The position numbers and the translations under genes are program-made. The notes under the pieces were generated by a model, which was not told the origin of the DNA, did not search any database, and saw nothing but the letters and a program-made list of their open reading frames with translations. From assembly GCA_030629105.1 (NCBI GenBank), contig DAOVPS010000032.1:1-20034 (forward strand): a DNA stretch of 20,034 bases. Direction: 5' to 3'. The stretch comes from Candidatus Heimdallarchaeota archaeon (GTDB taxonomy: Archaea > Asgardarchaeota > Heimdallarchaeia > JABLTI01). Each line of letters begins with the position of its first letter. Within the stretch, counting starts at the first letter, position 1. Below are positions 11,027 through 13,337 of the stretch, piece after piece.

Positions 11027-11069
11027 AAGTGGCGGGTGTGGGCGGATTCGAACCGCCGATCTCCCACTC
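11027..11069 (-). repeat. Perfect 43-bp copy of the tRNA-Arg(GCG) 3' half plus 3 nt of flank (att-like site, distal copy)
   Basis: AAGTGGCGGGTGTGGGCGGATTCGAACCGCCGATCTCCCACTC is identical at 43/43 positions to 13257-13299, offset 2,230 bp, in the same orientation. Identity ends inside the anticodon loop. Confidence 0.9.
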
Positions 11070-11084
11070 GAAGATAGAAGAGTT

Positions 11085-12653
11085 TCATTTCAACTTTCTT
11101 GCAACAATTATTATGATATTTGTTAAGGAAACGATAGAGAAAATTGTCCAAACGTAAATTGACAATGTAGTAGTTTCTGAGTTTTTAATTAAAGTAATTA
11201 ACAATGTGTAGTTTTGTGGTGTCGATACTCCGTCATAACAATTTATCCATAAATAGTAGATTCCAGAATAATGAGCAGTATAATTTAGCGTTTCTGGTGA
11301 AGTGTTTTTTTCACCAAAAGCAAGAATTTCTTCAACTGAACCACTGTAATTATGAGGAAGTAAATAGATATCAAGATTAAATTCTGTTTCATCAAATTCA
11401 ATTGTAGCACTAAAGAAATCATTTACATTTAAATTAAGTCTGAAGAAATCAGTGTCTAAGTAAATTAAATTTAGTAACAGGTTAAATGGAATCTCCGGAG
11501 CATTTTCAATAAAATCGTTTTCCTCGTAAATATCATCTATAATATAGTCAAATGGAAAATCAGACCAATTCATAATTGCAGGAGAGCTTAATGGATACAA
11601 ATCATAATTTGCTGGTCCAATTATTGGATAAAAACCAGAACCAATCCAATCAGACCAAAAGTTGCCTTCATTTATACCTGATAGATACCAAGTATTTAAG
11701 TTTGAAGAAGCACATCCCTGAGAGGCCCCATAACCATTATTTACAAAATTATTATGATGAATTACATTGTAGAGTGATCCTGTTTTTATGTTACAACCAT
11801 AACCATTATTGTCTTTTATAGTATTATAGGCGATTTCATTTTCATCACAATTATATAATCTTATACCATCAAGAAAGGAATTACTCAAAACAGTGTTATT
11901 GATAATTAAGTTGTTGTCACTACTTTGAAAGAGATAAATTCCTCCATATTCCTTTGAGCTTAAAATAGTATTATTGGCTAATAGGGAATTTGAAGTATCT
12001 CTTGTGAAAATTCCTCGATTAAAGTCATCTAATGAGTTATTGACAAGAATCAAATCATCGCAGTACGAGGAATAAATACCAGATGCACAGATATATCCTG
12101 CAGGGGAACCACCAACGAATGTGTTATTGTATGCGTATACACCTTCACAATAACTAATTCTCAAACCAGTATGGTCTTCTAATCCTATATTGTTAGCAAC
12201 AATAGTAAAATCAGCATACACAACCACAATAGCATCGGAATCGCACCCTTGGAACTGATTGTTAGCTATAACTGCGGTTCCATTGGAGATATTCTTAACA
12301 CGAAGACCGTCACCATTGACTTCAATATAACAATTGCGAACTATGAAATGTTTAGTTGTATTCCCAACAACAAGACCATCAGCATCTGTTGAATTAATAA
12401 TACTGTAGCCTTCTATCAGAAATGGATTTTCACGTGAACCGTCTCCAGGAAAACCATAATCAGTAAAACCACTATCACCATTTACTACAATTGGTACATG
12501 AGGTGTAAGAGTTTTCTTTCTTACATTTAAAGGATGGAATGCAATTGGCATTTGTATAGTAGTAAGTGAAAAATCACAAAATGTAAAAATGAACAAACTT
12601 GAAATTAATATAAACAATAAGACCCCACGAGATACAAGATTAGATATCTTCAT
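11085..12653 (-). CDS. Secreted right-handed parallel beta-helix (PbH1/NosD-like) surface protein with a PPC-like domain and C-terminal membrane anchor
   Basis: 522 aa with an N-terminal signal-like TM. Many repeats follow the N-x-(I/V)-x-x-N...G-(I/L)-x-(L/I) pattern (e.g. NNTILSSKEYGGIYLFQSSDNNLIINNTVLSNSFLDGIRLYNCDENEIAYNTIKDNNGYG). Next comes YEENDFIENAPEI...DTDFFRLNL...LDIYLL, typical of pre-peptidase C-terminal domains. The C-terminal TM ends with ARKLK. N-X-S/T sequons are numerous. Confidence 0.8.
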   Translation of the reverse strand: MKISNLVSRGVLLFILISSLFIFTFCDFSLTTIQMPIAFHPLNVRKKTLTPHVPIVVNGDSGFTDYGFPGDGSRENPFLIEGYSIINSTDADGLVVGNTTKHFIVRNCYIEVNGDGLRVKNISNGTAVIANNQFQGCDSDAIVVVYADFTIVANNIGLEDHTGLRISYCEGVYAYNNTFVGGSPAGYICASGIYSSYCDDLILVNNSLDDFNRGIFTRDTSNSLLANNTILSSKEYGGIYLFQSSDNNLIINNTVLSNSFLDGIRLYNCDENEIAYNTIKDNNGYGCNIKTGSLYNVIHHNNFVNNGYGASQGCASSNLNTWYLSGINEGNFWSDWIGSGFYPIIGPANYDLYPLSSPAIMNWSDFPFDYIIDDIYEENDFIENAPEIPFNLLLNLIYLDTDFFRLNLNVNDFFSATIEFDETEFNLDIYLLPHNYSGSVEEILAFGEKNTSPETLNYTAHYSGIYYLWINCYDGVSTPQNYTLLITLIKNSETTTLSIYVWTIFSIVSLTNIIIIVARKLK

Positions 12654-12737
12654 TTAATCAACCCAATTCCTACTTGAATTAAACCAAATAACTAAATCAA
12701 ATCAGTTAATATTAATCTTATGACAAAAAGAAATTAG

Positions 12738-12776
12738 AAGTGGCGGGTGTGGGCGGATTTGAACCGCCAAACTCCA
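12738..12776 (-). repeat. Degenerate third copy of the tRNA-Arg 3' half (older or heterologous att-like scar)
   Basis: AAGTGGCGGGTGTGGGCGGATTtGAACCGCCaAaCTCCaA... has 1 mismatch in the first 32 nt (flank, CCA, acceptor, T arm). It then decays through the variable-loop and anticodon-stem region. No 5' half adjoins it. Confidence 0.75.
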
Positions 12777-12810
12777 AACGCCTATCGAATAATTTTTTTA
12801 TTTCAAAATT

Positions 12811-13206
12811 TTATTGCTTCGTTTTTATTTTAGTACGAGTGATTCTTGTAATTGTATCAACCCATTGTCCACTAAGAAGTGAAGTTCGAAAATAAACTTT
12901 AAACAGAGTATCAGGATTTCTTCGAGGAAAATCATGATGTATAACATTTATACTAAACCTATTGCCAAGACGAAAAATAGTCTTATAGAAATGGCCAATA
13001 CCATAACCAGAGAAATCTTTTGGTAATCCTCGATCACCAAGATGAGCTCGAAATGGTTCATCTCCTAAATTACATGCTAAAGCATAAACAAGACTTTCAT
13101 ATTCCCTTCCACGATTCTCTTGCAACTTTTTGAATTGTTTAAGAGCACGGGGTGTGAAAGTAAGATATTTACCTTGAGCAAGAGCTTGTCGAACATTACT
13201 ACTCAT
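12811..13206 (-). CDS. Hypothetical protein with RelE/ParE-toxin-like segments, no adjacent antitoxin ORF
   Basis: 131 aa. YLTFTPRALKQFKKL parallels the E. coli RelE N-terminus YFLDFDERALKEWRKL. YKTIFRLGNRFSINVIHHD parallels YKIKLRSSGYRLVYQVIDE. The comparison is by eye, and the protein is ~35 aa longer than typical RelE. Confidence 0.4.
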   Translation of the reverse strand: MSSNVRQALAQGKYLTFTPRALKQFKKLQENRGREYESLVYALACNLGDEPFRAHLGDRGLPKDFSGYGIGHFYKTIFRLGNRFSINVIHHDFPRRNPDTLFKVYFRTSLLSGQWVDTITRITRTKIKTKQ

Positions 13207-13259
13207 AGCAAAATCACAAAACTACTTTTGATTTTTGATATGTAAGTATTATGCAAAAG

Positions 13260-13337
13260 TGGCGGGTGTGGGCGGATTCGAACCGCCGATCTCCCACTCC
13301 GCAGGCGGGCGCAATATCCAAGCTCTACTACACACCC
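13260..13337 (-). tRNA. tRNA-Arg (anticodon GCG), 78 nt with genomically encoded CCA
   Basis: The reverse complement folds as a cloverleaf: GGGTGTG-TA-GTAG-AGCTTGGATA-TTGC-G-CCCGC-CTGCGGA-GTGGG-AGATC-GGCGG-TTCGAAT-CCGCC-CACACCC-G-CCA. The acceptor stem has 7 perfect bp. The anticodon stem has 5 bp with one G-U. The T arm is 5 bp with a TTCGAAT loop. The D stem has two G-U pairs. The anticodon loop is C-U-GCG-G-A. Confidence 0.92.

Follow-up and report, generated by a model that had tools for sequence, protein, structure and literature searches.

An array of single-gene cassettes bounded by tRNA-Arg(GCG) 3′-half repeats in a Heimdallarchaeota chromosome

Integrase-less modules that are mobilised in trans are known from several settings: the cis-mobilizable elements (CIMEs) with accretion-mobilisation, the integrative mobile elements exploiting Xer (IMEX elements), and the pdif modules of Acinetobacter plasmids. 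SSV-type integrase proviruses, with gene capture in archaeal chromosomes, were reportedly described by She and colleagues in 2001. In Alteromonas, additive flexible genomic islands at tRNA hotspots carry strain-variable sets of cassettes, and related cassettes are found in different species (PMC4898812). No known organisms are more closely related to eukaryotes than the Asgard archaea, whose ways of gaining and exchanging genes are an open question. The locus analysed here comes from Candidatus Heimdallarchaeota archaeon and lies in a stretch of 20,034 nucleotides (nt), contig DAOVPS010000032.1 of assembly GCA_030629105.1, positions 1–20,034, termed the window. At this locus a 2.2-kb interval, bounded by copies of the 3′ half of a tRNA-Arg(GCG) gene, consists of two single-gene cassettes of a chromosomal array that is anchored on the tRNA gene. 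The locus has the formal layout of an integron, with different sites and no resident integrase.

The sole tRNA gene of the window and the copies of its 3′ half are as follows.

13260–13337, minus strand: intact, intron-less tRNA-Arg(GCG) gene (ARAGORN; Rfam RF00005, 54.9 bits; fold)
13257–13299, minus strand: repeat copy 1, tRNA nt 37–76 (ending in the encoded CCA) and the next 3 nt of 3′ flank
12738–12780, minus strand: repeat copy 2, core 27/28, T-loop change G57A (TTCAAATCC), 5′ part diverged
11027–11069, minus strand: repeat copy 3, 43/43 against copy 1

The 3′ end of the tRNA gene faces the lower coordinates. A repeat search of the window shows copies 1 and 3 to be identical at 43 of 43 positions, in the same orientation and with a spacing of 2,230 bp, as had been stated in an initial annotation made from the sequence alone. 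Comparison with the tRNA agrees with its description of the block, which starts at nt 37 in the anticodon loop and runs through the CCA to 3 nt beyond it, and the ARAGORN run proposed there finds the tRNA-Arg(GCG) gene on the minus strand as listed. Copy 2 displays 84% identity overall with a single mismatch in the 28-nt core formed by the T arm and acceptor. It had been described as nearly intact in this part, which is the case. The T loop of copy 2 is the native T loop of the tRNA-Arg in a distant relative (L088). The window contains the 28-nt core three times, and the expectation derived from 100 shuffles is 0.00. No copy of the tRNA 5′ half is found elsewhere in the window, and a profile search of the window yielded no further decayed 3′-half copies, e.g. 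between the gene of a 360 amino acid (aa) protein and the O6-methylguanine-DNA methyltransferase (MGMT) gene listed below. The same arrangement is present with 99.9% identity in seven independent assemblies (ENA, NCBI, Logan). Mis-assembly is thus excluded and the structure is real.

The units of the array and their genes are listed next. A and B denote two paralogues that are described further on.

12781–13256, minus strand: cassette 1, ~0.48 kb, one gene, coding fraction 0.83
12811–13206, minus strand: open reading frame (ORF) of 131 aa, an orphan, with its start 54 nt past the tRNA CCA
11070–12737, minus strand: cassette 2, ~1.67 kb, one gene, coding fraction 0.94
11085–12653, minus strand: gene of a 522-aa NosD/right-handed beta-helix protein (Pfam, NCBIfam)
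9838–11026, plus strand: cassette 3, beyond the 2.2-kb interval, with the 360-aa gene; gene body A-type, 5′ end and upstream region B-type
9931–11013, plus strand: gene of a 360-aa C45-like secreted, membrane-anchored protein (NCBIfam C45_proenzyme, 8e-9)
9261–9830, plus strand: MGMT gene (Pfam)

Both genes of the 2.2-kb interval share the orientation of the tRNA gene. The 522-aa protein has a signal-like N-terminal segment and a C-terminal membrane anchor, and the Pfam and NCBIfam matches agree with the 1.7-kb segment with a beta-helix surface protein reported at the outset. The shorter segment, given as 0.5 kb, measures ~0.48 kb with one ORF; the label “RelE-like” attached to this ORF is unsupported. 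No family match to it was found in Pfam (E ≤ 10), NCBIfam, PHROGs or PADLOC, and in protein libraries of 5.8 billion and 1.8 billion the only sequence recovered with it was itself. The AlphaFold (AF2) single-sequence model has a pLDDT of 44, too poor for a fold comparison with RelE/ParE.

An empty site, in which the tRNA 3′ end directly abuts the sequence left of position 11027, had been proposed as a check on the insertion. Such a site is found in L055, a metagenome-assembled genome (MAG) of a Heimdallarchaeota sister species with ~91% nt identity to the window. Positions 13257–20030 of the window align with L055 positions 250–7055, and positions 9838–11066 with L055 positions 7016–8242. These blocks place the tRNA 3′ end against the sequence left of 11027, with the 2.2 kb missing precisely from repeat to repeat; the relatives therefore do not all retain the same three copies. 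The L055 locus reads: tRNA, an A-like gene, a fragment, a 301-aa hydrolase gene and MGMT. The L055 and L008 loci were recovered by scanning species-representative genomes for the thiamine pyrophosphate (TPP) enzyme encoded beside the array. L089 is a metagenome contig, recovered by a core-pattern scan of metagenomes, with the same TPP-enzyme gene beside its array.

The content of the array and the order of its cassettes differ even among close relatives. L004, which is of the same species as the window, has five 3′-half copies versus three in the window. Its order is tRNA, 131-aa ORF, fragment f2, beta-helix gene, f3, 360-aa gene A, f4, a 139-aa ORF, f5, a 357-aa paralogue B, and MGMT. L089, with 97.5% identity in the TPP/MGMT region, is closer to the window than L055 is and has five copies as well. 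It contains genes for proteins of 311 aa and 209 aa, gene A, a gene of a 741-aa beta-propeller protein, and MGMT; thus it carries other cassettes where the window has the 2.2-kb interval. The window (with L001–3), L004, L089, L055, L086 and L008 all lie beside the same TPP-enzyme gene, and their contents differ. The initial view of the 2.2-kb interval as an insertion is supported by L055, but the interval is not a self-contained island, since it represents two units of a longer polymorphic array.

The 360-aa gene is itself part of this array. It has fragments on both sides in L004, L055 and L089, and the distal fragment is gone in the window. MGMT is absent from L086 and L008, and its stop codon in L089 lies 15 nt from the end of a fragment; for these reasons MGMT is probably the terminal variable unit, to which the array would extend. 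A comparison of window positions 9838–11026 with L004 positions 3865–6960 shows the 360-aa gene of the window to be a chimera of two 80%-identical paralogues. It is A-type for a length of ~1,100 nt, whereas the 5′ end and the region upstream are B-type. The window array with its three copies therefore arose from one with five copies, through homologous recombination of A with B. The deletion relative to L004 amounts to 1.87 kb and comprises f4, the 139-aa ORF, f5 and most of paralogue B. As read from this junction, homologous recombination acts in the array, demonstrated for one deletion.

The same architecture is found in more distant lineages. A survey of nine loci from several Heimdallarchaeota lineages yielded 21 fragment-bounded intervals, of which ~16 are non-redundant. 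Every one of the 21 contains exactly one gene, with a length of 0.48–2.4 kb and a coding fraction of 0.55–0.97, leaving ~50–400 bp of non-coding DNA per interval; one interval gene is frameshifted. Gene orientation is mixed (along the tRNA in ~13 intervals, opposite in 8). Further cassette combinations are seen in L055, L008, L087, L090, L091 and L092. L008, whose TPP enzyme is 82% identical, has three fragments, with genes for an 8xMP membrane protein, a frameshifted DUF6602 gene and a 115-aa ORF. L090 has five fragments, which separate an ORF of ~308–359 aa from two beta-helix genes with a GNAT gene lying between these two. The closest homologues of the beta-helix protein of the window (50%–73% identity) are encoded in L090, L091 and L092, between fragments of the same tRNA type. 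Thus one cassette type is present in different neighbourhoods: in the window, twice in L090, in L091 and in L092. The upstream region of this gene, just past the preceding fragment, is conserved together with the gene in the window, L090 and L092. L095 and L096 encode more distant beta-helix homologues, and these lie outside arrays. Past the tail of the DUF6602 cassette, L008 and L087 have different cassettes.

In L008 (4463–6485) and L090 (6885–8810) the array is found without an intact tRNA gene on the same strand. Both have a different, intron-bearing tRNA-Arg(GCG) gene on the opposite strand, head-to-head with the first fragment, and an adjoining conserved protein of 573/603 aa with a C-terminal NERD nuclease-like domain (58% identity between the two loci). 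Upstream of the L008 array, the region 1697–6274 encodes a HEPN-domain protein (PADLOC PDC-S19-like), a NERD-like protein and LVIVD-repeat proteins, and looks like a defence or variable region beside the array. A reading of the cassettes themselves as a defence island was set aside, the PADLOC matches being weak.

The repeats are not conserved evenly along their length. Between the window and L090, the beta-helix gene displays 65.5% identity, its 5′ untranslated region 60%–68% and its 3′ tail 55%–58%, and the last 24 nt of the flanking fragments are identical at 21–23 of 24 positions (88%–96%). The match to the tRNA was counted for each position over the 21 unique distal fragments.

tRNA positions 34–43: match in 5–16 of 21 fragments
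tRNA positions 53–56: match in 21 of 21
tRNA position 57: match in 13 of 21
tRNA position 58: match in 17 of 21
tRNA positions 59–64: match in 20–21 of 21
tRNA position 65: match in 13 of 21, a lineage variant
tRNA positions 66–76: match in 18–21 of 21

The conserved unit therefore extends from the T loop to the CCA; positions 57/58 vary within it, and the 5′ part is free to differ. This profile is consistent with a tRNA attachment (att) site in which the crossover would fall in, or just 3′ of, the T loop. The 3′ segment would be held because it must be able to complete a working tRNA, and the 5′ segment would be the arm of whichever cassette brought it. The long arm that reaches the anticodon loop accompanies the beta-helix cassette (window f3, L092; decayed in L090 f3 and f5). 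The diverged 5′ part and the TTCAAATCC T loop of copy 2 may be the att arm of the 131-aa cassette. The suggestion that more than one event had probably taken place is supported by the empty site in L055, but copy 2 need not be an older scar, since its diverged 5′ part can equally be the arm of another cassette.

At T-loop positions 57/58 the fragments display the variants GA, AA, GC, CA and TA, and neighbours in one array tend to share a variant (window 12738–12780; L004 5086–5127 and 5712–5753; L089 2194, 3440 and 5885; L086; L092). A tRNA with the GC or CA form would not function. The variants may stem from gene conversion or common descent, or they may mark the boundary of the crossover. 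Most copies are followed by a T-rich tract.

No integrase or recombinase domain was detected in any ORF of the window or of the 10 kb past its left end, and none in the ~3 kb past its right end as present in L001. The related array loci likewise yielded no recombinase. The profile searches of the window, of the leftward 10 kb and of all array loci thus agree with the initial annotation, in which no integrase was seen between or beside the repeats. A Logan contig (L005) was considered as evidence of a circular form. Both of its ends lie inside the repeats, which is expected of a k=31 assembly graph at a 43-bp repeat, and it was rejected.

The locus displays tRNA-derived repeats, precise presence or absence of units, differing cassette sets, one gene per interval, a selectively conserved stretch of 24 nt at the 3′ end of the fragments, and a deletion by homologous recombination. 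With these features in mind, we lean modestly towards regarding it as a tRNA-anchored, additive hotspot for single-gene cassettes, in which a trans-acting recombinase would insert the units at att sites resembling the tRNA, with later remodelling by homologous recombination as in the deletion described above. Circular intermediates, the position of the crossover, and the nature and existence of the trans recombinase are what we infer in addition. A unit would consist of a gene, its own short upstream region and an att site resembling the tRNA 3′ half. A small circle carrying such a site would recombine into the tRNA gene, or into a fragment already in the array, by a crossover between the T loop and the 3′ end. 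The tRNA would be regenerated and one more 3′-half copy left behind, and the reverse reaction would excise the cassette. Since no recombinase lies in or near the array, the enzyme would have to act in trans. The most plausible candidate would be a tyrosine integrase from an element that targets tRNA-Arg and resides at another place in the genome or in the community. The array would afterwards be remodelled by homologous recombination.

Several points weigh against this interpretation. No recombinase, no free element bearing an attP site and no circular junction were found. The 28-nt, 24-nt and degenerate cores have no match in IMG/VR, no viral contig encodes a relative of the beta-helix protein or the 360-aa protein, and a BLAST search of GenBank phages and PLSDB plasmids with the 3′ half returned nothing beyond a generic likeness to the T arms of unrelated tRNAs. 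The GC content of the cassettes is 0.319 versus 0.341 for the window, with a flat profile; the composition is not distinct from that of the host and thus gives no sign of a foreign origin. Repeats of 28–43 bp could allow homologous pop-out and pop-in without a site-specific enzyme, and homologous recombination acts here. The L008 and L090 arrays have no intact tRNA gene on the same strand, so that re-creation of the tRNA is not acting there now. In addition, the loci were found by synteny or on short contigs, and large integrase-bearing insertions may be under-sampled among them.

Of the three options offered by the initial annotation, a non-autonomous element mobilised in trans and a minimal cassette using the tRNA core fit best. 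A decayed tandem island fits worst, because all 21 intervals are compact single genes. The same observation bears on a related proposal, that the intervals are decayed relics of separate, larger integrase-bearing viruses or plasmids which integrated at the tRNA and were then mostly deleted. This is the textbook origin of tRNA 3′ fragments. In Thermococcaceae such fragments come from elements of 9–23 kb (PMC9897764), Heimdallarchaeal viruses and other elements do integrate at tRNA genes (PMC8813620), and some fragments in the present arrays are decayed (22/28 in L008 copy b, 24/28 in L004 f5). Against it, each interval holds one gene with ~50–400 bp of non-coding DNA and no integrase remnant; independent random deletions would not halt time and again at single-gene units, and the 3′ ends of the fragments are far better conserved than the DNA beside them. 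An origin as relics is therefore considered unlikely. A dedicated recombinase could also be dispensed with, if after one or a few ancient integrations homologous recombination at the 28–43-bp repeats, and with DNA of relatives, swaps the cassettes. The A/B chimera of the 360-aa gene and the 1.87-kb deletion speak for such a process, and the T-loop variants common to neighbouring fragments would fit gene conversion. This would leave unexplained the linkage of ~16 different genes to a tRNA half. It also sits badly with a 5′ part that is free while the 3′ 24 nt are held, though homologous recombination would favour the longest homology, and we regard homologous recombination as the sole agent as improbable.

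The 3′ halves might instead be RNA genes with a function of their own, as halves of a split tRNA or as tRNA-like signals for processing or termination. A TATA-like box shared with the divergent tRNA gene is located ~25–30 nt from the first fragment in L008 and L090, and the T-rich tracts after most copies could be read in the same way. But neither the window nor L001 or L004 has a 5′-half copy, the tRNA-Arg(GCG) genes exist in intact form, and many copies have G57C or A58C or have lost the 5′ strand of the T stem, which is incompatible with a working half. The presence/absence polymorphism, moreover, coincides with the repeat boundaries. A functional role of this type seems very remote. A stronger form of the hotspot interpretation is tentatively put forward as a minority view: the arrays would be an integron-like capture platform of the Heimdallarchaeota, with sites derived from the tRNA-Arg(GCG) 3′ half, in which single-gene cassettes, mostly for surface/membrane proteins and orphans, would be captured, shuffled and excised one at a time by a recombinase encoded elsewhere. 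On such a platform the 3′ 24 nt of the site would be under selection, because any cassette may come to supply the end of an essential tRNA.

The tRNA gene of the window differs from those of its relatives. It has no intron, and every copy in the relatives carries an intron of 31–32 nt at position 39/40 (ARAGORN with introns; Rfam): L055 6944–7052, and on the minus strand L088 1403–1512, L008 6277–6385 and L090 8609–8717. Several cassette-borne fragments (window f3, L087, L092, L086) display intron-less sequence through the anticodon loop. For this reason it is plausible that the intron was lost when an integration event replaced the 3′ half of the tRNA. It has long been proposed that tRNA introns interfere with integration; the window tRNA is a natural example of intron loss associated with an integration site and bears on that proposal. 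Fragments that start with “TTTGGGAG” were considered as remnants of the intron end of the relatives, but only 3 nt are shared, which is too little.

The flanks of the array are ordinary chromosomal genes. The two conserved flanking genes are as follows.

13422–14294, minus strand: EFR1-type ferredoxin gene, the conserved proximal flank on the tRNA 5′ side (NCBIfam; syntenic in L055 and L088)
7313–9112, minus strand: gene of a rubredoxin-fused TPP enzyme similar to pyruvate oxidase, the conserved distal flank (Pfam, NCBIfam)

On the tRNA 5′ side the EFR1 ferredoxin is accompanied by a HAD hydrolase, a YdjM-like protein and thioredoxin-like proteins, and on the opposite side MGMT and the TPP enzyme are accompanied by YjeF_N and an ABC ATPase. 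The 10 kb past the left end of the window contain housekeeping genes, e.g. Alba, a CBS protein, peptidase M28 and PfkB. In L055 (11793–14501) there is a 2.7-kb insertion between the TPP-enzyme and YjeF_N genes, corresponding to window positions 7209–7311. It encodes a caspase-domain (Peptidase_C14) protein, a 167-aa ORF and a 362-aa winged helix-turn-helix protein. The TPP enzyme displays 65%–75% identity to proteins of Thor-/Promethearchaeota, Methanococcoides and Methanohalophilus, and 50%–64% to some bacterial MAG proteins; its distribution in these comparisons suggests inter-phylum transfer.

An apparent truncation of the ferredoxin gene was rejected as an artefact of ORF calling, as the frame is open and identical to a 290-codon gene call in L003. 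The frame is open for ~290 codons including a flavodoxin-like N terminus, with no ATG, GTG or TTG ahead of that N terminus. The mechanical ORF is 187 aa long and begins at an internal Met. A non-canonical start or a lost start codon could account for this.

The locus represents a compact, recurrent way to vary surface and accessory genes singly at a tRNA gene. Should the cassettes move one by one, the arrays would represent a second architecture for cassette capture that evolved independently, and the 24-nt core GTTCRAATCCGCYCACACCCGCCA would provide a direct handle for finding the responsible recombinase. If it is only scar tissue reshuffled by homologous recombination, it is still a clear archaeal additive genomic island.

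Among known systems, several share parts of this organisation. In elements that target tRNA genes through tyrosine integrases (Williams 2002 sublocation classes; PMC8371274), the att block begins in the anticodon loop or the T loop and reaches the 3′ end of the tRNA, as it does here. The tRNA is regenerated, as it would be here, and in both cases the displaced 3′ part is left downstream and the 5′ limits of the block vary. Unlike these elements, the present arrays have no integrase in cis, their units measure 0.5–2.4 kb versus ~5–50 kb, and up to five tandem sites are present within 6 kb. Of the features of an integrative element, an intact tRNA gene with a same-orientation 3′ copy and an empty site are found; an integrase and a distinct composition are not. 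SSV-type “suicidal” integrase proviruses and gene capture (PMC8371274) resemble the locus in being trapped beside archaeal tRNA genes with repeated att sites. They differ from it by a split int(N)/int(C) gene reading through att, which is absent here, where only spurious ORFs of 31–59 aa cross the repeats.

Integrons, including those in archaeal MAGs (bioRxiv 10.1101/2022.02.06.479319), have compact, mostly single-ORF cassettes with one site each, and content and order vary between strains, as is the case here. In both systems the cassettes have no recombinase of their own. Unlike in integrons, there is no adjacent IntI or attI, and the sites are tRNA 3′ halves rather than attC hairpins. In L090 the 5′ strand of the T stem is degenerate while the 3′ 24 nt are kept, and the hairpin is therefore not the conserved feature. 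The genes are of mixed orientation with their own upstream regions, and are not co-oriented behind a common promoter. The CIMEs, IMEX elements and pdif modules mentioned at the beginning are likewise small modules flanked by recombination sites that accumulate in tandem, with the recombinase elsewhere. Those systems are bacterial and use att sites of integrative and conjugative elements or Xer/dif-like sites, whereas the site here is an archaeal tRNA 3′ half.

Of the concepts described so far, the additive flexible genomic island of Alteromonas comes nearest. In both, a fixed tRNA-adjacent site receives cassettes in variable number and combination and related cassettes recur in different species, and the partial tRNA direct repeat behind inserted cassettes is also found here, as are all the features of such an island that could be tested. 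The Alteromonas islands are bacterial, their cassettes are generally multi-gene, and integrases or mobile elements are often present; the present arrays, by comparison, belong to an Asgard archaeon, with one gene per unit, a fragment at every unit and no integrase seen. Such arrays are not described in the open-access text of the Asgard mobile-element literature that was searched. What is new here is a tRNA-anchored additive island with an integron-like unit structure in the Asgard archaea.

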